Assembly (NCBI GenBank): GCA_963766935.1
Contig: CAVYBY010000008.1
Location: forward strand, 158,884-222,883
DNA: 64,000 nt
Source of the DNA: an uncultured Actinomycetes bacterium
GTDB taxonomy: Bacteria; Actinomycetota; UBA4738; HRBIN12
Direction: 5' to 3'
Numbering within the stretch: position 1 is the first letter of the stretch; each line of letters opens with the position of its first letter. Positions 6,261 through 43,474 of this stretch are shown piece after piece. A program made the translations under genes and the position numbers. The notes beneath the pieces are model-generated. The model worked only from the letters and a program-made list of their open reading frames with translations, made no database searches and was not told where the DNA came from.

Positions 6261-7136
6261 ATGAGGAACGGAGCGTTCGCCGTCGCGGCGATGCTCCTGT
6301 TGCTGCCGGCGTGCACGTCGCGGCGGCCGACCGGCACGGTCACCCCGACGACGGGACCCCTGGCAGCCAAGGACTTCGATCCGGCCAATTTCGCCGAATC
6401 CTGGATCGTGGACAACCGGTGGTTCCCGCTGGAACCCGGCACGAAGATGGTGTTCGAAGGGCACGCGTTCGACGACGAGGAGCGCATCCGGCGCCGGGTC
6501 GTGGTCGTCGTCACCGACCTGACCAAGGAGATCGCCGGCGTCCGCGCGACGATCGTCCGGGAGCTGGACTTCACGAACGGGCGGCTCGAGGAAGCGGAGC
6601 TCGCCTTCTTCGCCCAGGACGCCGGCGGCACCGTCTGGCATCTGGGCGAGTACCCGGAGGAGTACGAGGACGGAGAGATCGTGAAGACCCCGGCGTGGAT
6701 CGCGGGGTCCGAGGGGGCCGCCGCCGGGGTCCAGATGCAGGCCGACCCTCGGTCCGGTACTCGCAGCTACGCCCAGGGATGGGGACCGCGGGTCGGCTGG
6801 AACGACCGCGGACGCGTGGATCGGCTCGGTGGACGGACGTGCGTTCCCGTCGCCTGCTACGACGACATCCTCGTCACTCGGGAGTTCAGCTGGACCGAGC
6901 CGGGTGCCTACCAGCGCAAGCTGTACGCGCCGGGAGTCGGCACCGTCCGAGTGGGATGGGGAGGGGCCCAGGAGGAGGAACGCGAAGTGCTCGTCCTGAG
7001 GGCCCTCGTGCACCTCGACGACGCCGCGCTCGCCACGGTCCGCGCCGAGGTTGTCGAGCAGGAGGATCGCGCGTACGAGAGGAGCCCGGGCGCCTACGGC
7101 CCCACGGAGCGAGCGGCGTCCCGGCCGGCTGGGTGA
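6261..7136 (+). CDS. Hypothetical lipoprotein
   Basis: MRNGAFAVAAMLLLLPAC signal/lipobox followed by a natural-looking globular sequence (DNRWFPLEPGT, FFAQDAGGTVWHLGE, KLYAPGVG); directly follows RND copy 2. Confidence 0.7.
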   Translation: MRNGAFAVAAMLLLLPACTSRRPTGTVTPTTGPLAAKDFDPANFAESWIVDNRWFPLEPGTKMVFEGHAFDDEERIRRRVVVVVTDLTKEIAGVRATIVRELDFTNGRLEEAELAFFAQDAGGTVWHLGEYPEEYEDGEIVKTPAWIAGSEGAAAGVQMQADPRSGTRSYAQGWGPRVGWNDRGRVDRLGGRTCVPVACYDDILVTREFSWTEPGAYQRKLYAPGVGTVRVGWGGAQEEEREVLVLRALVHLDDAALATVRAEVVEQEDRAYERSPGAYGPTERAASRPAG

Positions 7137-7210: not shown

Positions 7211-9237
7211 TCAGGCCGACCAGAGGTCGGTGAGGAACGCGTCGACGGTCGGGGCGCCGGCCCCGGCGTCGATCGAGCGGAGATCCTCCAGCGGCACGTC
7301 CGAACCCTCTTCGTCGAAGAGTGCCCGCACCTCCTCGGGCAGGAACCGCGACACCTGCGCGTACGCGTGCGGATCCTCGAGCCCGCGCGGGCGGCGGTAG
7401 TAGCGAAGCGGCACGTAGACGTGCAGCGCGTCGCGTGCCCGCGTGAGCGCGACGTAGAGCAGCCGGCGCTCCTCCTCGATCTCGTCGTCGCCCCCGGTCG
7501 CCATGTCGCTCGGGATCATGCCGTCGGCCGCGTGGATGACGTGCACGACGTCCCACTCGAGCCCCTTGGCCGAATGCATGGTCGAGAGCACCAGCCAGTC
7601 CTCGTCGAGGAGCGGCGGGCCGGCGAGATCGCTGGTCGACGAAGGCGGGTCCAGCGCCAGGTCGTCGAGGAACCGCGTTCGCGACGGCGACGTCGCCGCC
7701 ATCACGGCCAGCTGATCGAGGTCGCGAAGCCGCGCCGTCGAGCTCTCGTAACGGCGGGCGAAGACCGGCTCGAGGAACCTGCGAAGCCGTTCGAGCTGCT
7801 CGTCCACGCCACGGTCTTCGACCGAGCAGTCCCCGAGGGCCGCGCGCAGCTCGTCGAAGCCTTCGCGGGCCGGACCCGGCACGGCCGGCGGATCGTCGAG
7901 CAGCCGCCTGAGCGGCGACGGACCCGGGTCCGCCTCCTGCCGGACCCCGAGCGCCGTGAGGAGCCGGCGCGCGGTCGCCGGACCGATCCCTTCGGGCAGC
8001 TGGAGCACGCGGAACCAGGCGACCTCGTCCAGCGGGTTCTCGAGCACGCGGAGCAGCGAGAGCGTGTCCTTGACGTGCGCCGTCTCGAGGAACTTGAGCC
8101 CGCCGTATTTCACGAACGGGATGTTCCGCCGCGACAGCTCGACCTCCAGCAGGTCGCTGTGGTGCGCCGCGCGGAAGAGCACCGCCTGACGGTGCAGCGG
8201 GATTCCTTCTTCGCGGTGGCGCAGCACGGCCTTGCACAACACGTCGGATTGCTCCGCCTCGTCGAGGCAGGTTCGCAGCTTCGGCCGCCCCTCGCCCCGG
8301 CGGTCGGACCAGAGCGTCTTCTCGTGCCGCTGCGGCGACAGCGCGATGACCGCGTTGGATGCCGCAAGCAACGGCGGGGTCGACCGGTAGTTCTGCTCCA
8401 ACCGAACGACCGTCGTCCCGTCGAACCGCTGGGGGAACTCGAGGATGTTGCGGACGGTCGCCGACCGGAATCCGTAGATCGACTGCGCGTCGTCGCCGAC
8501 GACGGTCACGTTGGTCCCGGGCGGCCGCAGACCTTCGAGGATGCGCGCCTGGAGCGCGTTCGTGTCCTGGTACTCGTCGACGAGCACGTGGTCGAACGTG
8601 GCGGCGAGCGCCGGTCCCGCGGGCGACTCGACGAGCGCGCGCCAGAACAGGAGCAGGTCGTCGTAGTCCAGGACGTTCTGCTCGCGCTTGCGCCGGGTGT
8701 ACGCCTCGAAGACCTCGCGCATCCCGCCCGCTTCGTCGGCGCACCATGGGTAGCGACCGCTCCAGGACCACACCGAGCTTCTCGCCGGCGTTCACGGTTC
8801 GCGAGTAGATCGCCGCGAGCGTCGCCTTGCGCGGGAAGCGCCGCTCCCCCTGGCCGAGCCCGAGCTCGCCGCGGATCAGGTCCATCACGTCGGCGGCATC
8901 GGTCTGGTCGAGCACGGTGAAGTCCGGGCCGCACGCCGACCGCGCGGCCGTCGAGCCGGAGCAGCCGGTTGGCGACCGCGTGGAACGTGCCGCCCCAGAT
9001 CTCCGACGTCGCCGCCGCACCCGTCATTCGCTCGGCTCGCGCGACCATCTCGCGCGCGGCGCGGCGGCTGAACGTCAGCAGCAGGATTCGCGACGGGACG
9101 ACGCCCCGCTCGATCAGGGCCGCGACCCGGCAGGCCAGGGTCATCGTCTTGCCGGTCCCGGCGCCCGCGACGACGAGCAGCGGGCCGTCACCGTGGGTCA
9201 CCGCGGCCAGCTGCTCCGGATTCAGGTCCTCGAACAC
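7211..9237 (-). CDS. ATP-dependent DNA helicase, UvrD/PcrA (SF1) family; two apparent frameshifts near 8770 and 8930
   Basis: LNPEQ Q-motif, AGAGTGKT Walker A, GTFHA, VLVDEYQD, VGDDAQSIYGFR, LEQNYRS, STMHSAKGLEW, EEERRLLYVALTRA. Confidence 0.92.
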
Positions 9238-9253
9238 GTGTTCGGCGAGTATA
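9230..9253 (-). promoter_or_regulatory. LexA (SOS) box overlapping the helicase start codon, with an adjacent -10 element
   Basis: TCGAAC-ACGT-GTTCGG at 9230-9245 matches the Gram-positive/actinobacterial GAAC-N4-GTTC operator; TATACT on the minus strand at 9253-9248. Confidence 0.75.
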
Positions 9254-9273
9254 GGGCGGCGGACCGGGCGCGC

Positions 9274-10050
9274 CTAGCTGATCAGCGGGATCTCCCGGCC
9301 GGCCGCGGAACGAACGAGGCCGGGGACCTGGTCGGCGCCGACCGTCAGCTCGGAGGCGGCACGTCCTTCCGCATCGACCAGGTAGGCGGCCGGCGTCCCG
9401 ACGCCGGCGAACACCTCGGTCTCGGCCTCACCTCGGAACAGCACCCGTGCGTCGAACCCGTCGAGCAGCGGCCGGTTCTCCTCCCAGCTCCCGCGCGTGA
9501 CCAAGACCAGCTCGACGTCCCGTTTGCGAAGCCCGGTCTGCAGCGCGGCGAGCTCGGGGGCGATCTGCGCGCAGAAGCCGCAGAAGGGGCTCCAGTTGAT
9601 CAAGAGCATCCGGCGGCCGCCCAGATCCGCGAGCTCGACCTCGGCACCCTCGACGTCCGGCAGCGTGAAGGGCGGGATCGGCTCCCCGACGGCCACGCCG
9701 GGCGGCCACGGGGAGGACTCCGGCGGAGGCTCGTATGCGATCCCCTCGAGCAATCCGGCCCGCCCGATCTGCCGCGCGAGCGTCAGCAGGTCTTCCCGAA
9801 CGACGTCGAGCTCGGCGCCGAACACCTCCGCGAAGTCCGAGGCCAGCTCGTCGAGCGTGGCGGCTCCGTCGAACGCGGTCCACGCGATGGTTCCGATCTC
9901 GTTCAGGTAGTGGGCGTTCGCCGACCCTTCGGCGAGCAGCACTGCCTCGCCGTCGAGGACGACCGCAGCCACATTGGGTCGCGGCACCGGGACGAACTCA
10001 CTCTCGATCTCGTCGGCTGGCAGCTCCACATCCGGCGATCGCTCGTTCAC
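9274..10050 (-). CDS. PqqD/RRE domain fused to a TlpA/MauD-like thioredoxin (redoxin) domain
   Basis: N-half LDGEAVLL..HYLNEIGTIAWTAFDGAATLDELASDFAEVF...VREDLLTL (PqqD fold pattern); C-half GEPIPPFTLPDVEG...INWSPFCGFC...GTPAAYLVDAEGR; GTG start overlaps the upstream stop. Confidence 0.8.
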   Translation of the reverse strand: MNERSPDVELPADEIESEFVPVPRPNVAAVVLDGEAVLLAEGSANAHYLNEIGTIAWTAFDGAATLDELASDFAEVFGAELDVVREDLLTLARQIGRAGLLEGIAYEPPPESSPWPPGVAVGEPIPPFTLPDVEGAEVELADLGGRRMLLINWSPFCGFCAQIAPELAALQTGLRKRDVELVLVTRGSWEENRPLLDGFDARVLFRGEAETEVFAGVGTPAAYLVDAEGRAASELTVGADQVPGLVRSAAGREIPLIS

Positions 10051-10871
10051 GTTTCCTCCAGCGCCATGCCGGCCAGCTGGACGATCGCCGCGTCGGCGTC
10101 GATCCACGACGACTCGTAGCAGGCCGCCCGTTCGACGAACCGGCCGAGCGCCTCGAGGCCGGGACCCCCGACCTGCTCGAGGTTGAGGGTCCAATCCGCG
10201 AGGCTCGCCAGGGTGTATCCGCGGCGCGCCGGCCGAAGCGGCGCGTCCGGATCTCCCGCCGGCACGAAGACCGCCTCGACCTTCTCGGGCACCGCGACGA
10301 ACCGGAGCGCGTCCTCGCCACTCCACGGCAACACGCCTGCCAGTCGTTCGATCGCGTCGATCGGAACATCGAGGGACCGACGGAGCGGCACGACGGCCGA
10401 CGTCTCGACATCGATCGCCACGCTGAACTCCCCCGGCATTGCCAAGCCAAGCCTCGAAGCCCGGCGGCCGAGCTTCGCGAACGACGGAGCAAGCGACGGC
10501 GGCACCAGCGTCGGAACTCCGTGCACGTCGGCCACCGATGCCAGCACGTAGACGGCGTCGTCGCGCTCGTGGAAGGTGAACACCTCGAGCTCGGTGAGCA
10601 ACGCGCGGCCGAGCGTCGCCGGGTCGAGCGTGCGCACGATGGCCGAGGAGTCGCGGTACAGGATCAGGAACTCCTTCGATGCCCGGCCGGCCGGCGGCTC
10701 GGGCACCACCACCGAGTACAGGATGTCTTCGACGTCCTCGACCTCGTAGGCGCCGAGCACGTCGCGCAGCCACTCGCCGAAGGCGTGCGAGGTCGAGCGA
10801 ATGGCGAACCGAGCCTCACCGATCTCAAGGGAAAACGACACCACCCACCCGAGGTGGTCCAGTTTGTCCAT
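10047..10871 (-). CDS. Degenerate paralog of the HprK-related kinase (putative pseudokinase)
   Basis: Colinear similarity to 11180-12127 along its length (e.g. LRPARRGYTLASLADWTLNLEQVGGPGLEALGRFVERAACY vs LRPMSRAAALIRIAEQSFNQPVMGRLGARTLFDVVGRAQCF) but no GKT P-loop. Confidence 0.65.
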   Translation of the reverse strand: MDKLDHLGWVVSFSLEIGEARFAIRSTSHAFGEWLRDVLGAYEVEDVEDILYSVVVPEPPAGRASKEFLILYRDSSAIVRTLDPATLGRALLTELEVFTFHERDDAVYVLASVADVHGVPTLVPPSLAPSFAKLGRRASRLGLAMPGEFSVAIDVETSAVVPLRRSLDVPIDAIERLAGVLPWSGEDALRFVAVPEKVEAVFVPAGDPDAPLRPARRGYTLASLADWTLNLEQVGGPGLEALGRFVERAACYESSWIDADAAIVQLAGMALEET

Positions 10872-10940
10872 TCAGGAGCTCTGCGGTTTGCGCTCCCTGA
10901 CACGCTTGCGCAGATCGGAGTCTTCCGTCACGACGGTCTC

Positions 10941-11183
10941 CTACGTGAAGACTTCCCACAGCGCCGCCTCCGCCACCTCGAGCTGTCCGAGGACACCGAA
11001 GAGCGACTGAATGGGCACATGGGTGGGGCTCTCGTCCAGCGTCCGGAAGATCTCCAGCGCCAGCTCCAGTGACTTGCGGGCCTCGTCAACCCGCCGCCGG
11101 CTCTGGATCAGCTCCGTCGCCGCGCGGCTGTACGTGAACGGAATCGACGAGCCGGTTCGCGGAGGCGCCTCGGATGTCTTCAC
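10941..11183 (-). CDS. Small helical hypothetical protein (80 aa)
   Basis: GTG start overlaps the kinase TGA (GTGA); amphipathic helical sequence RAATELIQSRRRVDEARKSLELALEIF. Confidence 0.55.
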   Translation of the reverse strand: MKTSEAPPRTGSSIPFTYSRAATELIQSRRRVDEARKSLELALEIFRTLDESPTHVPIQSLFGVLGQLEVAEAALWEVFT

Positions 11184-12127
11184 ACCGTCACCATCCTGTC
11201 GTCCGCCGAGACGCGGGCGGGCTCGAAGAGACCGCGGACGGCTCGGATCGCATCGCCCAGATCGTCGATCGGCAGGTCGAAGCACTGCGCGCGCCCGACG
11301 ACATCGAACAACGTCCGTGCGCCGAGCCTGCCCATCACCGGCTGGTTGAATGACTGCTCCGCGATGCGGATGAGCGCGGCCGCCCGCGACATCGGCCGCA
11401 GCTCCGTGTCCGAACCCGGGCGGTAGGCGGGAAACACGACGAATGCGATCGGGCCGGGGGCTCCGATCGCCCCCGCACGGAGATCCTCGGCCGCGACGTG
11501 ATACCTGAGGCCGCGGAACCCTTCGTAGAAGAACGGCAGATCCGACGCGAGCCCGTCCAAGACCGGCATGGAGGTGGGCTCGATCAGCAGCGGGCGCAGG
11601 TAGGGATGGACCAGCGCCGTCTCCGGCTCGATCAGGGCCACCTCGTCGCCGAGGAACTGAAATCCCGCGCGAGTCAGGCCGGCCACGAGTGTCGTCTTTC
11701 CCGAATCCGGCGGCGCCGGCATCAAGACGGCTCGCCCGGCGAGCGACGCGACGGCGGCGTGGACGGCCAGGTACCGGTCGGTCCCCTCCACCGCGCGTCG
11801 CGTGCTGTCGAGGATGACCCAGTCCAGCATCGATCCCGGGTTGGGCACTCGCTGGATGCTGTCGCCGTCCTGGAAGAGCTCGTAGCAGTAGATCCTGCGC
11901 TCCTCCTCGAGTCCCGGGCTCAGCCGATGCGTGAGCGTGTACGTGGACACGGGCTCGCCGGCCGCCGGCTGCACAAAGGGAGCCAGCAGCCGCTCCACGA
12001 CGCGGCCGGCACCATCCAGGTCGCTTCGGACGCGGAACGCGTAGTCGAGAGCCCGGAACCGGCGGTCGAAGGACCAGTGCCGGCCATCGAGTTCGCGCAC
12101 CTCAACTCGACCCATCAAGCGCTCCAT
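11180..12127 (-). CDS. HprK-related kinase (type found in lasso-peptide and HPr-rel-A clusters)
   Basis: LAVHAAVASLAGRAVLMPAPPDSGKTTL (His + Walker A) and FLGDEVALI; start may be 12115. Confidence 0.85.
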   Translation of the reverse strand: MERLMGRVEVRELDGRHWSFDRRFRALDYAFRVRSDLDGAGRVVERLLAPFVQPAAGEPVSTYTLTHRLSPGLEEERRIYCYELFQDGDSIQRVPNPGSMLDWVILDSTRRAVEGTDRYLAVHAAVASLAGRAVLMPAPPDSGKTTLVAGLTRAGFQFLGDEVALIEPETALVHPYLRPLLIEPTSMPVLDGLASDLPFFYEGFRGLRYHVAAEDLRAGAIGAPGPIAFVVFPAYRPGSDTELRPMSRAAALIRIAEQSFNQPVMGRLGARTLFDVVGRAQCFDLPIDDLGDAIRAVRGLFEPARVSADDRMVTV

Positions 12128-12143
12128 TCACTACCGAGAAGCC

Positions 12144-12178
12144 CGACACCCGAGGGCCACCGAGGCCCTCGGGTGTCG
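12144..12178 (-). terminator. Perfect 15-bp stem-loop directly downstream of the precursor-like gene (terminator, attenuator or mRNA-stabilising hairpin)
   Basis: CGACACCCGAGGGCC (12144-12158), loop ACCGA, GGCCCTCGGGTGTCG (12164-12178); only a weak U-tract follows on the minus strand. Confidence 0.7.
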
Positions 12179-12202
12179 AGGTGGCACCGCAGCCCGCAGG
12201 GG

Positions 12203-12631
12203 CTACGTGCAGAAGGCGCCGTGCTTGTCCGCCCCTGGGTGGACCGAGACACGGGTGCCACAGACGGTTCCCTTGCAGAACTGGTAGTTCTCGTACGCGT
12301 GGCTGGGCGCACCGCCGTTCGACGCATATGCCCCCTGGTGCTTGCACCAGTCCCTGCAGTCGGCAGCGCTCGCCTGGCCGGGGTCGAGGAAGAAATCCTG
12401 TGCTCCGGTTTCGTGGCCGACGCCCGGGTTGGTCTTGTCGCCGTCCCAGCAGTAACAGGCGCTGCACGATCCCGAGCCGACCGACTGCGCCAGGGCTTTC
12501 GGCCCAAGGCTCTGGATTGCCGGGGCGACCCACAGAAGGGTGCCGCCGACGATGGCGCCTCGCCGGATCAGATCGCGGCGACTCATTCCCAACTCGCTGT
12601 TGAGATCCACGCGCCGTTCGGGCTTGTCCAT
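12203..12631 (-). CDS. Tat-signal, cysteine-rich small secreted protein (142 aa); candidate RiPP-like precursor/substrate
   Basis: RBS GAGGGGG; MSRRDLIRRGAIVGGTLLWVAPAIQSLGPKALA twin-arginine signal with A-L-A cleavage site; mature part has 8 Cys and ends ...GAFCT. Confidence 0.8.
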   Translation of the reverse strand: MDKPERRVDLNSELGMSRRDLIRRGAIVGGTLLWVAPAIQSLGPKALAQSVGSGSCSACYCWDGDKTNPGVGHETGAQDFFLDPGQASAADCRDWCKHQGAYASNGGAPSHAYENYQFCKGTVCGTRVSVHPGADKHGAFCT

Positions 12632-12759
12632 TGTTCCCCCTCGCGCTCGACGCTCTGATCGGCGCTTCCTGATACACGCTAGGCCCCGCCCTGCGCAGAG
12701 CCATGAGTCGTCCGCCGTATCTTTCCTGCACATTGCCGGCGTAGCCGATCTGCCGCCTC

Positions 12760-13629
12760 TCAGCGGAGCGATGTGGCCCCAAGGAGGTCGACGGCGACCA
12801 TCGAGCAGGCCGCGCCGAACGACCACATCAGCAGCGTGGACTTGACCCGCGAGCCGAAGCGGCGAGAGAGCCGGTCGTAGGAATGGTCCCGGTCTCCGAT
12901 CGAGGCGGGCCGGTCCGAGGCCACCCTGCGGACCACCGTCGAGATCAGCTCGTAGGCGAACACGCCCAGACACACGGCGGCCGCGATCAACCCGTTCCAG
13001 CCGGCCTCGCCGGCGTTCGCGATCGAGACCGCCAGGAGAACCCCGAGGGCGTACGCGCCGCCGTCTCCGAGGAACACGCGGGCAGGTGGGCGGTTCCACA
13101 AGAGAAATCCGAGCAGCGCACCCGCGGCGGCCAGCGGCACGGGAGCCGCGATGCCGTCGGCCGCGAGCATGCCGGCGAGACCCAGAGCGGCGAGGACACC
13201 GAGACCCGACGCGAGCCCGTCCTGTCCGTCGGCCATGTTCACCGCGTTGCAACACGCGACCGTCGTGAAGACGAGGCCCACACCCCCGGCCGCGCCGAGT
13301 GGCCCGAGTTCGAGCCCGCCGGCGACGAGCAGCACCCCTGCCGCCGCCTGGACGACGACGCGGATCCAGGGCGCGAGCGGCCGCCGGTCGTCGACGAGGC
13401 CACCGATGAGCGCGACGAGGACCGCCGCGGCGATCCACGGGTCGCCGTTTCCCGTCAGGCCGATCGCGAGCAACGCCGACAGGACGACCGCCGGCCCGCC
13501 GCTCGTCGGGATCGGACGCGTGTGGATCTTCAGCTCCCCCGGCCGGTCGACGAGCCCGACGCGAACCCCGATCCGCGCGAACAACGGCGTCAGCCCCGCG
13601 GCCGCGACGCACGCGATCACGAAGGGCAC
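12760..13629 (-). CDS. Polyprenyl-phosphate HexNAc-1-phosphate transferase (WecA/TagO/MraY family)
   Basis: LVDRPGELKIHTRPIPTSGG, GLVDD, NAVNMADGQDGLA, WNRPPARVFLGDGG, GDRDHSY. Confidence 0.88.
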   Translation of the reverse strand: MPFVIACVAAAGLTPLFARIGVRVGLVDRPGELKIHTRPIPTSGGPAVVLSALLAIGLTGNGDPWIAAAVLVALIGGLVDDRRPLAPWIRVVVQAAAGVLLVAGGLELGPLGAAGGVGLVFTTVACCNAVNMADGQDGLASGLGVLAALGLAGMLAADGIAAPVPLAAAGALLGFLLWNRPPARVFLGDGGAYALGVLLAVSIANAGEAGWNGLIAAAVCLGVFAYELISTVVRRVASDRPASIGDRDHSYDRLSRRFGSRVKSTLLMWSFGAACSMVAVDLLGATSLR

Positions 13630-15383
13630 GTCATCACCAGCACGTCGCTCGCGACACCGGCGTGGACCGACGTCTGCCCGGCCGGGCGGAACCCGAGCCG
13701 CTCGTAGAACCGGTGCGCGCCGTCGTTGTCCGCGCCGACGACGACCTTCAGCTCGCGCACGTCGTGCTCGGCCAGTCCGCTCACGACCGCGCGGGCGAGC
13801 ATGCCGCCGACGCCCTGGGACCGGCACGAGGCGTCCACCGCGATCGAGAGCAACTCGGCCTCGGGCAATCCCGCCAGCTCGGCCGGATGACGCGCGGTTT
13901 CGACCACGCGCCGCAGCACCGACGGCTCGACGAGGCGGGGAACGGCCGCGAGCGCGGCCATCGCTCCCTGACGGCGGGCGAACGTGCCGTAGAACGCGCG
14001 GACCGACGACACGCCCACGGCGAATCCTGCGACCCCGCGCTCGTCCTCGGCAACGAGCGCCACGGAGCCGGCGTCGGCCGCCACCGTCCGATAGAGACGC
14101 CGGAGGAACCCGTCCCCGAGGGCAGGCAGAAACGCGGTCGGCATCGACTCGCGGTGAAGTCTCGCCATCGCCGGTGCGTCCTTGGTTCGAGCACGCCGGA
14201 CCTGCACCTCGCCGGGATCAAGACCGGACTCGCGACTCGGGGCACCGAGCAGCCTCCGCGTCGTCTCCACGACCGTGGAAACAACGCGGCGCTCGTCGAA
14301 CCGCTCCTCGGCGCGCTCGCGCGCCGCGACCCCCATCCTCGTGCGAAGCAACGGATCCCGAAGGATCCGGACGATCGCATCGGACAGACGCACGGGGTCC
14401 CGAACCGGGACGAGGAGGCCCTCGACGCCGTCACGAGCGACCTCGCGGCAACCGCGGATATCCGTGAGCACAAGCGGCAGGCCGCTTGCCGCCGCCTCGA
14501 TCGCCGAGCGCGGCAGCCCCTCGCGCCAGGACGGCAGGACGAAGACATCCATCGCCGCCATCAGGTCGGCCACGTCCTCACGCCAGCCCGCGAACACCGT
14601 GTGGTCACGTGCGCGCTCGATCACATCCGGACCGATCGAGTCCCGCTTGCGGTCGTCGGGTTCGCCCACCACCAGGAAGCGGGCGTTCGGCACCCGCGCG
14701 CACACTAGGTCCGCGGCTTCGAAGAGCTCGGCGTAGCCCTTCTCCATCACCATCCGCCCGACGGTCCCGACGACCAGCTCGTCCTCACCGATCCCCAGCT
14801 CGATCCGGAGCGTGCGGGCTCGCTCGCCGCCCGCGAGGTCCGGCGTGAATGCCGAGAGGTCGATCCCGTTGCCGAGGTGCAGCGAACGGCCGGGGCGCGT
14901 CAGGTGCAGCCGGCGCGCCCAGGCGAGGTCTTCCGCGGACTGGTATAGCTCGAGGTCGCTGCACCGGCCGGCGATCCATTCGGCCGCCAGCACCGGAACG
15001 CGCTTTCGCAACCGATCCTCCGGCGTGGCATACAGGCCGTGCACCGTGTTCACGACTGACGGGACTCCGGCCATCCGCGCACAGACACGGCCGAGGACGC
15101 CGGGCTTGGGATTGTGGGTGTGCACCAGGTCGAATCGCTCCCGGCGGAAGATCCCCAGCAGCTCGGCGGCGGCGAGTGCGTCCTGGCGCGGATCGCATGC
15201 GCGCGTCGCGTGGCGCCACGGGATGTGCCGGATGCCCTCGGCCTCGAGATCCGCCACCCACGGCCCGGGCGCGCTGATCGACGTCACATCGAACCCGGCA
15301 TCGCGAAGCGCGCAGAGCTGCTGGAGGAGCAGAAACCTCAAGGTGAGGTCGACCGTCGCGACGTGCGCGATCCTGGATCTCAT
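13617..15383 (-). CDS. GT4 glycosyltransferase with a C-terminal GNAT acetyltransferase domain
   Basis: VHTHNPKPGVLGR, DVFVLPSWREGLPRSAIEAAASG; C-terminal LLSIAVDASCRSQGVGG...NDGAHRFYERLGF. Confidence 0.88.
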   Translation of the reverse strand: MRSRIAHVATVDLTLRFLLLQQLCALRDAGFDVTSISAPGPWVADLEAEGIRHIPWRHATRACDPRQDALAAAELLGIFRRERFDLVHTHNPKPGVLGRVCARMAGVPSVVNTVHGLYATPEDRLRKRVPVLAAEWIAGRCSDLELYQSAEDLAWARRLHLTRPGRSLHLGNGIDLSAFTPDLAGGERARTLRIELGIGEDELVVGTVGRMVMEKGYAELFEAADLVCARVPNARFLVVGEPDDRKRDSIGPDVIERARDHTVFAGWREDVADLMAAMDVFVLPSWREGLPRSAIEAAASGLPLVLTDIRGCREVARDGVEGLLVPVRDPVRLSDAIVRILRDPLLRTRMGVAARERAEERFDERRVVSTVVETTRRLLGAPSRESGLDPGEVQVRRARTKDAPAMARLHRESMPTAFLPALGDGFLRRLYRTVAADAGSVALVAEDERGVAGFAVGVSSVRAFYGTFARRQGAMAALAAVPRLVEPSVLRRVVETARHPAELAGLPEAELLSIAVDASCRSQGVGGMLARAVVSGLAEHDVRELKVVVGADNDGAHRFYERLGFRPAGQTSVHAGVASDVLVMTCPS

Positions 15384-16777
15384 CGGCTCGATCTCCGTGG
15401 GGTCCGCAACAGCTGCGCCTTGGGTGGGATCGAAAGCAGGACGAAGAACACGGGGAGGAGTTGCACGCGTTCACGGTCGAGCAGACCGAAGTTGGCGAAG
15501 GCCGAGAACGCGATCACACACAGCACGACGTACGCGGCGCAGAACGCAACGAACGGCTGCCGGCGGATGCTCAACAGGGCCGCCATCCCCCAGCGCCATC
15601 GGAACACCGCCAGCAAGAACAGGAACACGCCGCCGACCGAGGCCATGCGCTCGAGCGACCCGCTGGTTTCGGTGGGGAACGGCCGGAAGAACACGGTGAC
15701 CAGAGCCTCGGGAAACTGGCTCGGCCCGCTCACGATCGGCGGGTCGTAGACCGACCCTCCGTACGACGAACCTTCCGAGGTCTGCGAGAGGGCGCTCGTC
15801 AGCCCGTGTTCCGTCCCGATCCCTTCCGATTTCAGGAATCGCTCCGTCCGCATGACCAGCACCCCGGCAAGGACCGCAACCGACACCAGGCCGATCGCCT
15901 TTGCGACCGGCGCCAGCTCCCGCAGGTCGGCCTTCGGCTTTCGCAGCAGGTACGCGAACGCGAACGCGACGCCGATCATCCCGGCCACATGGGGACGGAC
16001 GGCGATCATGGACGCCAGCCCGATCCCCAGCGGGACGAATCCCCGCCGCGCACTCCCGGTCAGCGCGCGCGCGGCGCCGTACACCGCCAAACCCATGCCG
16101 AACACCATCCACGAGTCCTTCCCCATGAACGAGGACCAGAACGCGAAGGAGGGAAACAGGAACAGCAGGCGCGCATAGGTCTTCGGCCTGCCCTCCGGCA
16201 CCGCGATGCGAAACGCCCGGTAGAAGGCGAACCCCCCCCAGAACCCGAGCCACGCGTAGACGAAGAACCCGCCCAGGTTGGTCGGGCCGATGAACGTGTA
16301 CACGATTCCGTTGACGTAGCCGGGCCAGGCTGTCCCCCCGACCCCACCGGGAATGTGGAACGTGAAGCCGCCGGCGTGGAACGTCTCGAGGAGCTGCTTG
16401 CCGACCCGGTCGTAGCGGGCCACGTCTGCGACTCCGCCGTAGTAGTCGAACGCGACAATGCGCCCGATCCAGGCGACCGCGAGATGGAGAAGCAGCACGC
16501 CGAGCAGGAACCAATACAGATGGCGGTTCCCCTCGCGCGCCGCCTCGCGGGAAAGAACCGGGATCGACACGACGACCAGAACGGGAGCGACGAGAAGCCC
16601 GCCCCAGATGTCGAAGGAGCTGCGCCCCATGAGGGTGATCAGCAGCCAGACGTACAGGACGATGAGCAGCAGCCCCGCAACGAGGATGGCCGGCTGGGGC
16701 CACGGCTCGACAGGCCGGGCTGCGATCGCGGGCGCCGGACGTTCGAGTTCGACGCGAACACGAGTGGACTGGCTCAC
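15380..16777 (-). CDS. Polytopic membrane protein, Wzy-like polymerase or GT-C-fold glycosyltransferase
   Basis: About 11 hydrophobic segments; DVARY, FPSFAFWSSFMGKD, VRPH and NFGLLDRER motifs; located between GTs. Confidence 0.6.
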   Translation of the reverse strand: MSQSTRVRVELERPAPAIAARPVEPWPQPAILVAGLLLIVLYVWLLITLMGRSSFDIWGGLLVAPVLVVVSIPVLSREAAREGNRHLYWFLLGVLLLHLAVAWIGRIVAFDYYGGVADVARYDRVGKQLLETFHAGGFTFHIPGGVGGTAWPGYVNGIVYTFIGPTNLGGFFVYAWLGFWGGFAFYRAFRIAVPEGRPKTYARLLFLFPSFAFWSSFMGKDSWMVFGMGLAVYGAARALTGSARRGFVPLGIGLASMIAVRPHVAGMIGVAFAFAYLLRKPKADLRELAPVAKAIGLVSVAVLAGVLVMRTERFLKSEGIGTEHGLTSALSQTSEGSSYGGSVYDPPIVSGPSQFPEALVTVFFRPFPTETSGSLERMASVGGVFLFLLAVFRWRWGMAALLSIRRQPFVAFCAAYVVLCVIAFSAFANFGLLDRERVQLLPVFFVLLSIPPKAQLLRTPRRSSR

Positions 16778-33250: not shown

Positions 33251-34829
33251 TGGGCTGCCTCCACGAGCTGACCGGACACGTTCTCGAACGATCTGCCGCA
33301 TGTCGCGCACGTGACGGGCCGGTCGCCGTGGGGCAGACGTTCGCCGCACGAGCACATCCACCCCGCTTGGCGCGCGGGCACACCGAGCACGAGGGCGTGA
33401 TCGGGGACGTCGGTCGTCACGACGGAGCCGGCCGCGACGAACGCGTACCGGCCGACCGTGCGGCCGCAGATGACGGTGCTGTTGGCCCCAAGCGTCGCGC
33501 CGCGCCGGATCACGGTGCGCCGGTACTCCGACTTTCGCTCGATCTCGCTTCGAGGGTTCATCACGTTCGTGAAGACGACCGACGGGCCGCAGAACACGTA
33601 GTCCTCCAACTCGACACCGTCGTAGAGCGAGACGTTGTTCTGGACCTTTACTCCGTTGCCGATCCGAACGCCGCCGGCGACGAACGTGTTCTGGCCCAGG
33701 ATGCAGTCCCTGCCGATGCGGGCGCCGCCCATCACGTGGGCGTAGTGCCAGACGCGCGTGCCGGTCCCGATCCGAGCTCCCTCGTCGATCGTTGCCGTCG
33801 CGTCGGCGTAGAAGTTCGGAACCTCTTCGCGTTCGAGCCCGACCGGCGCCCCACCACGGTCGAGCGACAGCTGGCCCGCCGCCAGCACGCGAAGCACATC
33901 GAGACCGCTTCTTCCGTCGGTCAACGGCGCTTCCCTGCTCGCGATCGCCTCGAGGAACGCCTCGCACTCGATCCGCAGCGGCTCACCCGGCTCGATCTGG
34001 ACCGCGGTCGCCTCGGCCTTTCGCGCGATCGGGACCTTTCCCCCCACCCAGTCCACCTCGTTGGGGTACAGGAGAAGCTTCTCCCCCACGGAGCCGTGTC
34101 GTCGAAGACCGCCATCTGCCGGTCTCCGACCGCGACGAACCGCTGCTCCTTGAACGGGTGCAACCAGCTGACGAACACGTGGGCGGGAACCGACTTCGGG
34201 AACTGCAGGCTCATGAGGCTGGCGTCGGCGATACCGTCGCTCAGATAGGCCCCGCCGCGCACGGCTACCTCGTCGGGCATCTCGCCCATCAGACGCAACA
34301 GCAGTGCGACGTCGTGGGGTGCGAAGCTCCAGAGGGCGTTCTCCTCCGTGCGCACCCGGCCGAAGTTGAGCCGGTTCGAGTACAGGTACAGGAGCTTGCC
34401 GAGCGCGCCGGTCTCGATCAGCTCGCGGAGCTTGGTGACCGCCGGGTGGTACTCCAGCACGTGTCCGACCATCAGGACCCGCCCCGTGGCTTCCGCAAGT
34501 TCCACCGCTTTCTCCGCCTCCGAGACGGAGACGGCGAGCGGCTTCTCCACGAGCACGTCCTTGCCGGCATCGAGCGCCGCAAGCGCCAGCTCCGCGTGCA
34601 TCGCGGCCGGCGCGGCGACGACGACCGCCGTGACGTCCCTGTCGGCGAAGACGTCGTACGGGTCGGATGTCCGCCGCACGTCGGGATGGCTCACGGCCAG
34701 CGCGTCCAGCCGGCGCGAGTCGGGGTCGCACACCATCGCGAGTCGGCCGAGACCGCTCCAGACCCGCACGTGGTTCACACCCCAGGCTCCACAGCCGAGC
34801 ACGGCGATCCGGATGTCGTCCTGATTCAT
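33247..34829 (-). CDS. Gfo/Idh/MocA oxidoreductase fused to a hexapeptide N-acetyltransferase (WbpB+WbpD-like); one frameshift near 34085
   Basis: [27 protein letters not shown]; then [37 protein letters not shown]. Confidence 0.85.
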
Positions 34830-35944
34830 CACCATCTGCTCCTCATCCATCGGGCGGGGACTGCGAGTCGCCGCAGGTAGGAAGGACGCCTCCCCGGACT
34901 GGTCCGAGCGGCGAGGAACTTCTCTTCCGGGAACGCCAGCGCGGCGACATAGGCGGCCTTCGAACGCACCCCGGGGACCGCGCGCATCGTCGCGAGCGCC
35001 GTGCCTCCCGCCTTCCGGCGGCTCCCTTCGTATTGCCGGAGCGCCCGGGTCTCGTCTCGCGGGACCGAGCGCGCGATGCGGTCGAGCTCCTTCGGTGGCT
35101 CGAGCCCGAGCTGCTCGGATGCCACGGAGAACGCGCGGCCGAGAACGCCGGTCAGGCGCCAGGCGCGGCACCACTGCTCGAGCGTGTCCCAGTCCACCGC
35201 ACCCGCCCGCGTCACTTGGAGCACGTCGCGAAGTGGCACAAGCCGCGGGGGCCACGACCCCAGGACCGCGTGCATCGCGGTGTTCAGTAAGAGACCCGTG
35301 TCGTCGAGCCGCGCGACCGCGCGCTCCCCGATCTCGAAGGTGGCGGCCGACCGCAGCAGCTCCTCGGGTCGCATCCAAAGGCCGAACGGACCCAGCACCA
35401 GCGTGCGGTGCAGGTCCACCTCGACGCGATCGTCCGGGTGCACATGCACGCTGGCCTTCCCAAAGCGCGCATCGAATCCGGGGCGGGGCTCGGGCTGGCT
35501 TCGGACGTGCCCCAGCCGCTGGAGCAGCTCGCACGCCCGGTCGTAGTCGGCGGTCGCAACCAGCAGGTCCAGGTCCCCGAACGAGCGCAGGCTCGGGTCC
35601 GGATACACCGTGCGCGCGACCGACGCCCCCTTGAGCACGGCGAACCGAACGCCGGCGGCGTCGAGCTCATCGGCCAGGGCCAGCTGCTTCTTCTCGATCC
35701 GCAGGCACCACACCATCGACTCGAGATGCGCCGAGCGGAGCGATTCGAATGACGGCTCGTCGAGCCGAAGCCATCCCGCGGCCGCACTCTCGAGCGCCAG
35801 GCCGCTCAATCGCTCGAACTCGATCCCCGCGAACAACCGCTGCCGCTGGATCTCCGTCGGAGCGAAGAGCTCCGGCTCGCGGCGAGCCGGGAGCCCAAAC
35901 GCCGCGATCGAGCGGAGCGCAGCGGTGACCGCCGCGTCAGACAT
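34829..35944 (-). CDS. Nucleotidyltransferase family protein (NTP_transf_5 type, RiPP/EPS-associated)
   Basis: [36 protein letters not shown]. Confidence 0.85.
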
Positions 35945-36230
35945 CGGCGCCCGCGACCTCCTCGACGAGCCCGAGCGCCAGCAACTCGTCCACGCACGCC
36001 GCCACCTGCGCTTGCAGGTCCGCGCGCGCGACGCCGTACCGGTCCGCAAGCAGCTCGACCAGCCGCTCGGGGCGCTCCGGAACCACCAGCTCGCGCCATA
36101 CCTCGGCCGCGCCCCCGGTCAGCCGGTGGACGTTCTCGTCCGACGACGTCGTTGCCACGATCTCGTCGTGGGCGCGCCGCCAGATCGCGCGATGCGATCG
36201 CCGCACGAGGACCTCCGGCCCGCCGATCAC
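35937..36230 (-). CDS. PqqD family protein (RRE)
   Basis: 97 aa; HRLTGGAAEVWREL...LVELLADRYGV...VAACVDELLALGLV; overlaps both neighbours. Confidence 0.8.
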   Translation of the reverse strand: MIGGPEVLVRRSHRAIWRRAHDEIVATTSSDENVHRLTGGAAEVWRELVVPERPERLVELLADRYGVARADLQAQVAACVDELLALGLVEEVAGADV

Positions 36231-39658: not shown

Positions 39659-40200
39659 CGGCCCGTCCCTCCTTCCGCCAAGGCGGCGACGGCGGCCGCC
39701 TGGTTCGGGACGCCCAGCCGCCTGAAGGCTCGGGTCTTGTGCTGCTCGACCGTCTTGGGGCTGATCCCGAGCACTCGCGCCATCTGCTTGCAGGCCAGCC
39801 CCTTGGCGGCAAGCCGGAGGATCTGCTCCTCGCGCCGGGTGAGACCTTCGGTCCCAGACGGCGGCGGCGCGCCCCCCGGCACGAGCGCCGATGCCAGGTG
39901 TGAGACGTCCTCGTCGACCGCCACGGTGATCCCCTGTTCGTCGTCGCCGTCCTCGGGCGCCGCCGACGCGATCACGACCACCCGGAGTCCCCGTTTCCGC
40001 AAGCGGCCGATGACGCCGGGCGCGCCCGGGATCCGGGCGTCGATCGCGACCACGTCTGCCTGGCGGGCCCACTCCTCGACCTCGGCGGCGCTCGTCGTGA
40101 CGCCGACCGGCACCAGTGCGGGATACCTCGCGAGCGCCGCCGCGATGCCCTCGGCGGCCAGGGTCTCGCGGTGCGCCACCACCACCGCTCGGACGCTCAT
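39637..40200 (-). CDS. LuxR-family regulator with a degenerate receiver domain
   Basis: LTRREEQILRLAAKGLACKQMARVLGISPKTVEQHK; receiver lacks the first acidic pair (VVVAHRE). Confidence 0.8.
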   Translation of the reverse strand: MSVRAVVVAHRETLAAEGIAAALARYPALVPVGVTTSAAEVEEWARQADVVAIDARIPGAPGVIGRLRKRGLRVVVIASAAPEDGDDEQGITVAVDEDVSHLASALVPGGAPPPSGTEGLTRREEQILRLAAKGLACKQMARVLGISPKTVEQHKTRAFRRLGVPNQAAAVAALAEGGTGRWSRSSI

Positions 40201-42062
40201 GAGGCGGCCCTGCCGGCCGGCTCGCGCACATCGGTCGCGCGCGTCTGCCGCATCCGATCCGCGAGATCCTCGAGGCGGTTCTCCCGGGCGAGCCGCTCCA
40301 TCTCGTCGAGACTTCGGCGAAGGTCGACCGGGTCCGGAGCCGGAGGGATCGCGACGACGATCCCCGGACGCTCGGTCGGCACCGGCGACTCCTCGTCGTT
40401 GACGAGCTCTTCGTGCTGCTTCTCTCCTGGGCGGGCGCCGATCACCTGGATCGGGACGTCGCGGCCCGGGACGCGCCCGGACAGCCGAATCAGCCGGTGC
40501 GCAAGGTCGAGGATGTTGACGGGGTCCCCCATCTCGAGAGTGAAGACCTCTCCGCCGCGCGCGAGCGCCGCGGCCTGGAGCACCAGCTGGACCGCCTCCT
40601 CGACGCTCATGAAGTACCGCGTCATCTCGGGATCGGTGACCGTCACGGGCCCGCCGGCCGCGATCTGCCTGAGGAAGGTGGGCACGACGGATCCCCGGCT
40701 CCCCAGGACGTTGCCGAACCGCACCGCGCACAACACGGTCCCCTGCCTCGACAGCCCGCGCGCGATCTGCTCGGCGATCTGCTTCGACGCGCCCATCACG
40801 CTGGTCGGCCGCACCGCCTTGTCGGTCGAGATCAAGACGAAGCGCGACGCCCCGCAGGCTCCGGCGGCCTCGACGACATTCGCGGTGCCGACGACATTCG
40901 TCAGCAGGGCCTCCTGCGGGTGCTTCTCCAGGATCGGCACGTGCTTGTGCGCGGCGGCATGGAACACGACCTCGGGGCGGTACTCGTCGAATACCTCGCT
41001 GGTCCGAAGACGGTCGCGCACGTCCGCGAGGACCGGCGTGGCGCGCGAGCCGTCGAGGGTCACCAGGAGGTCGTGCAAGTGCGTCTCGTCGTGATCGAGC
41101 AGGATCAACCGCTCCGGTTCGAAGATCTCCACCTGCCGGGCGATCTCCGAACCGATCGAGCCCCCCGCACCGGTGATCAGGACGCGCCGGCCGCGGATGA
41201 GACGGCGAACGGCGGCCAGATCGGTTTCGACCTGGCGGCGTCCCAGCAGGTCCTCGATCCGCAGATCGCGAAGGTCGCCCACCGTCGCGCGGCCCCCGAC
41301 GATCTCCCGCACCGAGGGCAGCACGCGCAACGAGACGCCCGCCTCCTCGCAGCAGATCGCCACGTCGCGGATCAGATCGCCGGTGGCGCTCGGGATCGCG
41401 AGCAGCACCTGGTCCACCTCGAGCTTTTGAGCGATGACGGGGATCGACCCGTGCCCACCCAGCACGATGGCTCCATGAAGCTCGAGTCCGAGACAGCGCG
41501 GGTCGTCGTCGATCAGACCGACCACCTCGAGGGTGGACTGCGGGTCCCGAAGGATGTCGGCGAGGACTTCCGCGCCCGCGTCGCCGACGCCCATCACGAG
41601 GACGCGCGCTCGCTCGCTATCGGCGGAACGCCGGCGGAACGCGAACAGCCGGCTCTGGAACCGGATCGCGCCAAACGCCATCAGCGCCGAGGCGTTCCCA
41701 AACGCGACCACCGACAGTGGAAGCGGCCGCCGTCCGTGACCGAGGAGCAGGGTCATCCCCAGCAGAAGGAGGAAGCTCGCCACGCCGGACAGAAGGACAC
41801 GCCTCGCCTCCTGGACGCTCGCGTGCCGCCACATCTGGCCGTAGAGGCCGAAGAGGTAGTTGCAGAGTAGATGGATCAGCGCGACCGCCGGAAGCACGAC
41901 CAAGAAGCGGTGCCAGCGATTCGTCGGCACGCCGCCCTCGAACCGAAGGACGAGCGGCACCAGGTAGGCGGGCACGACAATCAACGCGTCGAGAAACGCG
42001 AGCGGGATGTCGAGTCGCACCCGCGCGACGATGCGTTGGGGAAGTGATGCGTCCGGGGTCAC
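40197..42062 (-). CDS. Membrane-bound nucleotide-sugar 4,6-dehydratase (CapD/PglF/WbpM family)
   Basis: Four N-terminal TMs, IEDLLGR, TGAGGSIGSE, HAAAHKHVP, STDKAV, RFGNVLGSRGSV, RPGEK. Confidence 0.92.
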   Translation of the reverse strand: MTPDASLPQRIVARVRLDIPLAFLDALIVVPAYLVPLVLRFEGGVPTNRWHRFLVVLPAVALIHLLCNYLFGLYGQMWRHASVQEARRVLLSGVASFLLLLGMTLLLGHGRRPLPLSVVAFGNASALMAFGAIRFQSRLFAFRRRSADSERARVLVMGVGDAGAEVLADILRDPQSTLEVVGLIDDDPRCLGLELHGAIVLGGHGSIPVIAQKLEVDQVLLAIPSATGDLIRDVAICCEEAGVSLRVLPSVREIVGGRATVGDLRDLRIEDLLGRRQVETDLAAVRRLIRGRRVLITGAGGSIGSEIARQVEIFEPERLILLDHDETHLHDLLVTLDGSRATPVLADVRDRLRTSEVFDEYRPEVVFHAAAHKHVPILEKHPQEALLTNVVGTANVVEAAGACGASRFVLISTDKAVRPTSVMGASKQIAEQIARGLSRQGTVLCAVRFGNVLGSRGSVVPTFLRQIAAGGPVTVTDPEMTRYFMSVEEAVQLVLQAAALARGGEVFTLEMGDPVNILDLAHRLIRLSGRVPGRDVPIQVIGARPGEKQHEELVNDEESPVPTERPGIVVAIPPAPDPVDLRRSLDEMERLARENRLEDLADRMRQTRATDVREPAGRAAS

Positions 42063-42355
42063 AGAGACTCAGATCGAGATTGAGGGCCGGAAACCGAAAG
42101 CAGCTTCGCCCTGCGGAACTGCCCGACCAGCGTGCGAATCTGAAGCTCGACCTCTTCGACGGGCAGGTCGAATGCGTGCGCGACGTCCGCGGCGAGCTGA
42201 GGCATCGTCGCGGTGCCGTCGCACAGACCGAACACGACGGTGGCCGTCGAGTTCAGATGGTGGAACGCGCCGTTCGTCTCGTCGAAGACGACCGCCTCGC
42301 CGTCGAGCTCCTCGACGAGAAGATCTGCGCGGATCCTGGGTTTGACGCGGGGCAC
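42059..42355 (-). CDS. PqqD family protein (RRE)
   Basis: EELDGEAVVFDETNGAFHHLNSTATVVFGLCDGTATMPQLAADVAHAF. Confidence 0.88.
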   Translation of the reverse strand: MPRVKPRIRADLLVEELDGEAVVFDETNGAFHHLNSTATVVFGLCDGTATMPQLAADVAHAFDLPVEEVELQIRTLVGQFRRAKLLSVSGPQSRSESL

Positions 42356-42359
42356 GCGA

Positions 42360-43327: not shown

Positions 43328-43474
43328 GCGGCTCCTCCGTCCCCTCGAAGAGGTCCCCCAGTGCTGCGTGGCTCAACGTAGCCAGGAAACCAACGTCGAA
43401 CACCCGCTGCACGACGTAGACGGTGTACGCCGATGGAACCATTCGTAGGTCTCCCCTCCCGGGGGGACGAAGCG

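Follow-up and report, generated by a model that had tools for sequence, protein, structure and literature searches.

A stretch of 64,000 nucleotides from an uncultured Actinomycetes bacterium (GenBank assembly GCA_963766935.1, contig CAVYBY010000008.1, positions 158,884 to 222,883; the window hereafter) encodes, at 9274..10050 on the minus strand, a protein in which a recognition element of the PqqD type, known from the biosynthesis of RiPPs (peptides made by the ribosome and modified after translation), is joined by a proline-rich linker to a CxxC redoxin domain resembling TlpA and ResA. At about even odds, this fusion of a RiPP recognition element (RRE) with a redoxin is a leader-guided, cytoplasmic thiol-disulfide oxidoreductase for small, disulfide-rich proteins exported by the twin-arginine translocation (Tat) pathway, and it works within a module formed by an HprK-like kinase and a pseudokinase relative. 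An earlier note on this DNA had proposed such a leader-guided oxidoreductase, and the RRE fold, the TlpA/ResA fold, the co-localisation of fusion and client genes and a model of their complex all speak for it; the same note had overlooked both the pseudokinase partner and the wider module, of the type that combines RRE, HprK-like kinase and NTP_transf_5, to which the unit belongs within a polysaccharide locus. RRE domains are address readers for peptide-modifying enzymes, and what appears to be new here is that the tailoring enzyme guided by an RRE would have a thioredoxin fold as its catalytic domain and would read a new kind of leader.

The gene specifies 258 amino acids and a stop, as read from its translation, its Pfam matches and an AlphaFold2 model, and its start codon, GTG, and the TGA that ends an upstream 274-amino-acid open reading frame (ORF) overlap as GTGA; homologues begin at the same aligned site. 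The RRE/PqqD domain lies at 9748..9981 (minus strand, as are all parts of the fusion; residues ~24-101), with a match of PF05402 to residues 35-101 at 38.3 bits against a curated cut-off of 23.4, and the thioredoxin-fold redoxin domain at 9301..9690 (residues ~121-250), where AhpC-TSA (PF00578) matches residues 121-190 at 42.4 bits (cut-off 26) and Redoxin matches the C-terminal half at 35.4 bits (cut-off 26.6). The linker, residues 105-128, holds nine prolines. The motif WSPFCGFC spans residues 153-160, and its C157 and C160, the sole cysteines of the protein, form the active site C157-G-F-C160 (9571..9582). Facing it is a presumed cis-Pro loop, G218-T219-P220 (9391..9399). N152, W153, S154, P155, C157, C160, G218, T219 and P220 are invariant in an alignment of 69 sequences. 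The fusion has no transmembrane (TM) segment or signal peptide, its highest Kyte-Doolittle mean over 19 residues being 1.14, and residues 1-25 carry a net charge of -5; because of the absent TM segment and signal and the acidic N-terminus it is placed in the cytoplasm. ResA, TlpA, CcmG and MauD are typically extracytoplasmic by virtue of a signal peptide or an N-terminal anchor, neither of which the fusion possesses. The architecture that the earlier note had described, a PqqD-like domain, a Pro-rich linker and a TlpA-like redoxin with neither signal peptide nor TM segment, is borne out by Pfam, by the sequence and by the predicted folds.

AlphaFold2 returns the full fusion with a mean predicted local distance difference test (pLDDT) of 92 from the 69-sequence alignment, and the N-terminal 112 residues, folded separately, with 91.6. 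Strands at 27-32, 35-40 and 46-49 are followed by helices at 51-59, 66-77 and 81-97, that is, the three-stranded sheet and subsequent three helices of a winged helix-turn-helix. Because Foldseek with the whole model gave thioredoxin-fold matches alone, the N-terminal domain was also searched by itself. Its closest structures in the Protein Data Bank (PDB) are of leader-bound TbiB1 (5v1u/5v1v, target-normalised TM-score (TMt) 0.85-0.86, root-mean-square deviation ~2 Å), followed by TfuB1 (6jx3, TMt 0.85) and PqqD (5sxy, TMt 0.83), with the RRE domains of PbtF, ThcOx, LynD and sactisynthases lower down. A profile of the RRE run against PDB sequences recovers the same proteins, with E 5.6e-14 for TbiB1, 2.1e-10 for PqqD and values for TbiB1, PqqD and TfuB1 ranging to 4.6e-9. 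The proposal of the earlier note hinged on this domain adopting an RRE fold, and with TMt values of 0.83-0.86 to solved RREs it does model as one. Among the NCBIfam models the fused RRE has no TIGR04353 match and reaches 18-21 bits on the lasso PqqD models, the cut-offs of which are 70-80.

The redoxin domain is closest to ResA (1su9, E 2.1e-9, TMt 0.79), with further Foldseek matches to DsbE, CcmG, TlpA (1jfu) and DsbE/DsbF of M. tuberculosis, and it falls short of the NCBIfam equivalog cut-offs for ResA (NF002854, 34.6 of 170 bits) and TlpA (NF047696, 31.7 of 230 bits). The best Pfam match of this half is AhpC/TSA, and annotation by JGI calls relatives 'peroxiredoxin', so that a general antioxidant enzyme of peroxiredoxin- or thioredoxin-like activity, with an incidental PqqD domain and no dedicated peptide substrate, has to be weighed. 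Strict peroxiredoxins carry P-x-x-x-T/S-x-x-C; the fusion reads L-I-N-W-S-P-F-C-G-F-C, with no proline seven residues before either cysteine, and this motif together with the ResA/TlpA-type structural neighbours rules out a peroxiredoxin as such. The broader antioxidant role is very improbable given a W-x-x-x-C-x-x-C of the TlpA/ResA type, the structural matches to ResA, DsbE, TlpA and CcmG, the conserved neighbourhood and domain fusions, and the leader docking described below, which is specific in the model.

The architecture is both real and widespread. A word-indexed protein search gave 76 hits, all from metagenomes or metagenome-assembled genomes (MAGs), of which 65, the window's own protein included, carry PF05402 together with PF00578 at 49-71% identity. 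A scan of public MAGs, one genome per species, gave 42 related loci (L-numbers below), in which local profiles find a PqqD domain followed by a thioredoxin-fold (Trx) domain in 26, tandem Trx-Trx without PqqD in eight, and in the remainder one Trx domain or else fragments where a contig ends; the 26 are all labelled Actinomycetota MAGs, several of them Acidimicrobiia or Microthrixaceae, and the fusion of L025 looks frameshifted. HMMER over 1.84 billion cluster representatives retrieved 824 proteins at E<=1e-30. Among the best 148 of these (P-numbers below), again classified by local profiles, 97 start with PqqD-Trx, 58 of them as PqqD-Trx-HprK-like and 39 as PqqD-Trx, and C-G-[YF]-C is found in 76 of the 97; the others are Trx-Trx (30), three Trx domains in a row (11), a single Trx (5), PqqD fragments (2) and one each of PqqD-PqqD-Trx-HprK-like, Trx-Trx-PqqD and HprK-like-PqqD-Trx, the last being the gene order of the window in one chain. 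Recurrence on this scale in hits, MAG loci and cluster representatives rules out both chance and an assembly artefact, the latter a doubt that the earlier note had itself raised.

Redoxin relatives without an RRE are also found (L021-L024, L026, L033, L038 and L039; proteins P0078, P0079, P0090, P0105 and others), as Trx-Trx and triple-Trx forms with one N-terminal helix or a MauE domain ahead of them; MauE scores 85 bits in P0079 and 93.8 bits in P0105, against a cut-off of 27. Many Trx-Trx forms begin with one hydrophobic helix and then basic residues; by the positive-inside rule their Trx domains would then face the cytoplasm. In L021, L022, L023 and L039 the Trx-Trx gene stands directly 5' of Tat-signal ORFs with 20-22 cysteines, with no kinase nearby, and these RRE-less proteins may be a second solution for the same type of client.

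The presumed client of the fusion is encoded in the same operon, at 12203..12631 on the minus strand, where the earlier note had placed a Tat-signal substrate with eight cysteines. This precursor of 142 amino acids has an acidic N-region, the twin-arginine signal SRRDLIRRG, an h-region carrying W34-x-x-P37, an AxA cleavage-like site (ALA-Q) and a core of ~90 amino acids, and its cysteines occupy positions 56, 59, 61, 92, 96, 119, 124 and 141. The RR motif, invariant in 23 homologues, the h-region and ALA-Q, along with two copies of TatC in the organism's own genome, suggest export by Tat. A loose scan for Tat motifs and cysteines in related loci brought out small ORFs with a shared leader, S-R-R-x-x-L-K-R-x-G-x-G-A-A-x-A-W-x-A-P-V-x-x-S-L-x-x-P-A-x-A, ahead of unalignable cores with 8-22 cysteines, often several per locus. 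In 23 aligned precursors R18, R19, W34, P37, A46 and the first core cysteine are invariant; the cores run to ~70-210 amino acids, most of them ~100. Neither Pfam nor NCBIfam has a family for the precursor of the window, and Pfam has none for ten Cys-rich precursors from related loci (one with sub-threshold noise). In L001, L005, L006 and L007 up to four precursor paralogues per locus (for example 6410-6820 and 7038-7445 in L005) combine near-identical leaders with divergent cores of 14-18 cysteines, which resembles the multi-precursor arrays of RiPP clusters. A weak language-model lead connects the precursor of the window with the light chain of methylamine dehydrogenase (0.90, 121 shared features; recognition 2165, under the 2300 mark) and was not used as evidence.

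Fusion and precursor genes travel together. Counted with an iterated leader profile, 17 of the 26 PqqD-Trx loci have, in the flanks that were fetched, an ORF that combines the leader with at least four cysteines, no more than 5 kb away in 12 cases and no more than 2 kb in 10, which is the co-occurrence of PqqD-redoxin genes and Cys-rich Tat proteins that the earlier note had suggested looking for. There are 29 such ORFs in 466 kb of loci and one in the 2.59-Mb genome from which the window comes. That genome has 65 ORFs with a loose Tat pattern, of which just one has at least eight cysteines and just one matches the leader profile, both being the precursor gene of the operon; one match among 65 marks the leader as specific, unlike Tat signals in general. 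Secreted proteins with all their cysteines in disulfides classically have an even number of them, and of 34 leader ORFs the 29 with at least six cysteines have an even count (6, 8, 10, 12, 14, 16 or 18) in 27 cases; none of the leaders has a cysteine.

How leader and fusion might meet was addressed with one modelled pair, the full fusion (69-row alignment) and precursor residues 1-56 (23-row alignment). The interface score, ipSAE, was 0.71 (0.71, 0.70 and 0.75 in the runs) against 0.02 for the best of three controls (range 0.00-0.02); the ipSAE mark is attained in 58 of 80 solved complexes, as against 2 of 110 mismatched pairs, and because self-made alignments went into the present model these rates apply to it only approximately. 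The runs share at least 75% of their contacts, and the partner has a pLDDT of 62 or higher. In the model leader residues 28-45 are contacted by strand 3 and the beginning of helix 1 (RRE residues 44-56) and by helix 3 (83-98), most tightly between RRE residues 47-50 and leader residues 38-41 and between RRE 84-95 and leader 34-39, the stretch with the invariant W-x-x-P; leader residues 18-26, around the twin arginines, are in modelled contact as well. Precursor residues 53-56, which end at the first core cysteine, touch fusion residues 154-160 (CxxC), 217-221 (the GTP loop) and 237-240. The model supports an arrangement in which the leader sits in the groove of the RRE and the first core cysteine lies at the CxxC.

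The fusion and the precursor belong to an operon of five head-to-tail genes on the minus strand with two GTGA start/stop overlaps. An HprK-related kinase of 315 amino acids (11180..12127, minus strand) has an intact P-loop, PPDSGKTT, and scores 124.7 bits on TIGR04352; the 274-amino-acid ORF at 10047..10871 (minus strand), the stop of which overlaps the fusion start, has a C-terminal match to the same model at 1.8e-4 (20.7 bits), and both miss the cut-off of 200. The kinship of the two is invisible to loose BLAST; iterated profiles seeded from either one converge on the same ORFs, which identifies the 274-amino-acid protein as a paralogue of the kinase, and since its P-loop position reads P-S-L-A-P-S-F-A-K-L it is one without a P-loop. 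Of the 26 PqqD-Trx loci 24 have an HprK-family ORF, in 21 within 300 nt of the fusion, and all 24 have a P-loop-less copy that adjoins the fusion except in L010, where it stands 1.25 kb away on the opposite strand. P-loop-bearing kinases are found elsewhere in the loci, apart from the fusion; read by eye, the P-loop is E-A-G-K-T-T in those of L027, L030 and L042. The P-loop is likewise absent from all 58 PqqD-Trx-HprK-like representatives, and in P0103 (951 amino acids) the chain continues into an NTP_transf_5 domain (residues 614-865, 117.6 bits). When the ORFs within 8 kb in 27 loci are clustered, the sole recurrent neighbours besides the HprK family are a membrane protein of 465 amino acids, in 13 loci, and a GT1 glycosyltransferase, in nine. 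The tightest conserved partner of the fusion is the P-loop-less HprK paralogue, ahead of the Cys-rich protein, and the fused chains are Rosetta-stone evidence that RRE-redoxin and pseudokinase work together.

These links also feed a distinctly unlikely alternative, that RRE, redoxin and pseudokinase form mainly the substrate-recruiting subunit of an HprK-like kinase/nucleotidyltransferase tailoring module, in which the redoxin is a redox switch or a structural element that leaves the cysteines of the substrate alone, and the true substrate may not be the Tat-signal, Cys-rich protein. Pseudokinase adjacency and pseudokinase fusions, P0103 included, are the strongest conserved links of the family, in nine of the 26 loci the fetched flanks are without a Cys-rich precursor, and a pair of TIGR04353 PqqD genes lies, with an NTP_transf_5 gene, in the polysaccharide locus of the window. 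The combination of RRE, HprK-like kinase and NTP transferase is moreover an established RiPP tailoring set, the kinase of which phosphorylates a core serine, according to one study (PMC13381572). Against this alternative stand the invariance of the CxxC and the cis-Pro loop across the family, a sign of catalytic thiol chemistry, the RRE-less Trx-Trx genes that directly precede Cys-rich Tat-signal ORFs with no kinase nearby, the position of the first core cysteine at the CxxC in the complex model, and the even-cysteine signature of the linked proteins.

If the fusion is indeed a leader-guided oxidoreductase, the course of events might be the following. The precursor would be made with a Tat-type signal that, as seen in its sequence, bears the invariant W-x-x-P in the h-region, and the RRE would, according to the model, grip this signal from the RR to the A-x-A, with the leader adding a strand beside RRE strand 3 and lying against helix 3. 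Such binding would mask the Tat signal in the manner of a proofreading chaperone. The Pro-rich linker would let the CxxC reach the first core cysteine, C56 in the model, for thiol-disulfide exchange, and disulfides would be formed or shuffled and the mini-protein folded before Tat export. The P-loop-less paralogue may be a physical partner that probably docks the RRE-redoxin onto the active HprK-like kinase, in which case one leader-binding site would serve both redox handling and phosphorylation. On release of the leader the protein would leave by Tat, and signal peptidase would cut at the A-x-A.

The direction of the chemistry leans somewhat towards forming or isomerising disulfides over keeping the cysteines reduced, because a Tat signal implies folded export, because cysteine counts are even and because relatives are fused to MauE. 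Targeting of the same kind could also serve the opposite chemistry, with the RRE-redoxin acting as a reductase or holdase that keeps the core cysteines reduced in the cytoplasm and removes aberrant disulfides while phosphorylation, another modification or unfolded export proceeds, the final disulfides forming outside; we regard this as unlikely, if not greatly so. The leader, the complex model and the co-localisation fit it equally well. The ResA/TlpA/CcmG fold family is known mainly for specific reductants, a threonine before the cis-proline, here the invariant T219, is typical of reductases and isomerases and not of DsbA-type oxidases, and with no oxidant partner conserved nearby a reductase could be recycled by general cytoplasmic reductases; it is the missing conserved electron acceptor and the habit of the fold family that keep this alternative alive. 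Its weaknesses are that use of Tat rather than Sec suggests folded export, and so an all-disulfide mini-protein oxidised beforehand, that a dedicated reductase is less needed in a cytoplasm that is already reducing, and that MauE-fused relatives point, by analogy with the mau system, to a disulfide-forming pathway.

Several observations weigh against a leader-guided oxidase or isomerase. Solved RRE-leader complexes exist (5v1u, 5v1v, 6jx3), so the score of the complex model may partly reflect likeness to them, and the precursor alignment behind that model is self-made and the model takes in just residues 1-56. Most characterised TlpA, ResA and CcmG proteins are extracytoplasmic reductants. A catalytic oxidase would need an electron partner, and among the ORFs up to 8 kb from the fusion in 27 loci there was no conserved one of the Erv, VKOR, DsbB or thioredoxin-reductase type; the two MauE homologues of the organism's own genome (C8:300822-301178 and C3:427752-428153) lie outside the operon. 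With 24 of 26 loci against 17 of 26, the pseudokinase is linked to the fusion more tightly than the Cys-rich protein is, and for that reason the RRE may serve mainly the kinase module. As to the nine fusion loci with no leader-plus-cysteine ORF in their fetched flanks, five of their genomes were searched whole: one of the five held no leader match, and the other four gave 2-6 each. Provided that contig numbers equal record suffixes, three of these four genomes add to the co-localisation, some of their matches being at distances of ~0.7 kb (a weak match, E 7e-4), 12-18 kb and 20-21 kb from the fusion, whereas in the fourth, L013, the same-contig match is that locus's own three-cysteine ORF, outside the 17 counted. 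Lastly, the binomial p of 8e-7 for even cysteine counts overstates the independence of precursors that are related within subfamilies, and two of the 29, in L012 and L025, both long-read MAGs, have odd counts.

With the lasso B1 proteins TbiB1 and TfuB1 and with PqqD the fused RRE shares its fold and leader groove, the modelled leader running along strand 3 and helix 3; here, however, the RRE neither stands alone nor leads into a protease or radical-SAM enzyme but is fused to a redoxin, and the leader that it is modelled to bind is a Tat signal on a protein of ~140 amino acids. A lasso-peptide pathway is rejected because the whole genome, 93.27% complete, has no match to B2 (PF13471) or to the cyclase (PF00733). 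TlpA, ResA and CcmG (DsbE) have in common with the redoxin domain the thioredoxin fold, the N-terminal hairpin, the inserted helix, the W-x-x-x-C-x-x-C and the loop G-x-G-T-P-x-x-Y/F-L-V-D, whereas the fusion lacks their signal peptide or anchor, carries an RRE, and has as its apparent clients Cys-rich mini-proteins in place of cytochromes c or copper centres. In the maturation of methylamine dehydrogenase by MauD and MauE a thioredoxin-like accessory is dedicated to a small, exported, disulfide-rich protein, and the analogy that the earlier note had drawn with it survives in part: close redoxin relatives are fused to MauE, but membership of the MauD family itself fails, the fusion scoring 24.9 bits on TIGR02661 against a cut-off of 188.6, the operon has no MauE and MauD is not known to carry an RRE.

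Sets of an RRE, an HprK-like kinase and an NTP_transf_5 protein are familiar from the 'HPr-rel-A system', paeninodin-type lasso peptides and LPP RiPPs, and all three families are present in the window; paeninodin and pseudomycoidin are precedents for tailoring of RiPPs by kinases. The window differs from such sets by the additional P-loop-less kinase paralogue and the redoxin domain, and by substrates that are Tat-signal proteins and not short peptides. The LPP RiPP set has characteristic signal-peptidase and MsbA genes (PMC13381572). A further likeness is to the Tat proofreading chaperones, or redox enzyme maturation proteins, such as TorD and DmsD, which bind twin-arginine signals in the cytoplasm before export, as is predicted here; in the model this likeness stems from leader contacts that span residues 18-45, the RR included. 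The fold of the fusion is unrelated to theirs, and thiol chemistry would take the place of cofactor insertion. A literature search, with subscription journals and supplements outside its scope, found no paper in which an RRE is combined with a thioredoxin fold or reads a Tat signal.

The remaining gene of the operon, an 80-amino-acid ORF at 10941..11183 on the minus strand, has a GTG start that overlaps the kinase stop (GTGA) and relatives, 55-63% identical, solely in L001-L003. It belongs to no NCBIfam family, a longer 114-amino-acid version of it gave no Pfam match, and its product, read by eye, may be helical. Scans of 9000-13000 gave no promoter-like site and one terminator-like site, which lies inside a gene and is no more than shuffled sequences give. 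A UvrD/PcrA-like helicase at 7211-9237 (minus strand), named from motif reading alone (GAGTGKT), is split over two frames that overlap, 8506-9237 and 7211-8773; ~100 residues into the former the reading becomes Arg-rich nonsense, and a single reference over the region has four stops, so that either an assembly frameshift error or a pseudogene would account for it.

From 12.7 to 43 kb the window holds a polysaccharide-type locus with a WecA-like GT4 glycosyltransferase, one gene that combines GT1 with GNAT, a UDP-glucose dehydrogenase and Polysacc_synt_2. Two tandem stand-alone PqqD genes inside it, at 42062-42373 and 42375-42620 (minus strand; TIGR04353, 44.9 and 36.5 bits, cut-off 35), are 32 kb from the fusion, with a gene for a LuxR-type response regulator (42641-43372) upstream of them and Polysacc_synt_2 (40197-42068) directly downstream; L005, L006, L027 and L030 likewise have PqqD genes in tandem pairs. 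The NTP_transf_5 gene (PF14907, 110.3 bits) is at 34829-36118 on the minus strand, and around its 5' end a weak PqqD-profile match in another frame (E 3.8e-8, ~35957-36205) may reflect either a frameshift or a short PqqD gene that overlaps it. The 465-amino-acid polytopic membrane protein, at 15380-16777 on the minus strand in the window and near the fusion in 13 of 27 loci, has no Pfam or NCBIfam match; language-model features group it with GT-C glycosyltransferases of the GT39/PMT_2 type (0.98-0.99, 224-225 shared features), a lead by which the exported Cys-rich proteins might be glycosylated. Elsewhere in the genome, the two MauE-domain ORFs have open frames of 374 and 379 amino acids and are thus probably fused to something else; a weak Trx-profile match (C8:302440-303477) stands 1.3 kb from the first of them, and the two are possible redox partners, though unlinked to the operon.

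Engineers meet the problem of forming disulfides before Tat export by adding oxidases to E. coli, and an RRE-guided redoxin would be a natural, substrate-addressed answer. In the most far-reaching version of the proposal, which we advance tentatively and with more doubt than conviction, the Tat signal doubles as a RiPP-style leader, and the grip of the RRE-thioredoxin, with or without the pseudokinase, would keep the precursor from the Tat translocon while disulfides are installed or proofread, hand it to the kinase and release the oxidised product. This would be a cytoplasmic disulfide-folding machine coupled to Tat quality control, and it would explain how disulfide-rich proteins come to use a folded-protein export route out of a reducing cytoplasm. 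Thiol-disulfide chemistry would then join the leader-guided modifications, and the export signal itself would be the recognition leader, linking the logic of RiPP biosynthesis with Tat proofreading. The clients look like a hypervariable library of even-cysteine mini-proteins, attractive as scaffolds or bioactive molecules, and the family of the fusion is large, by the counts given above. In this version of the proposal the clients would amount to a large class of disulfide-rich mini-proteins, secreted by soil Actinomycetota and so far undescribed.

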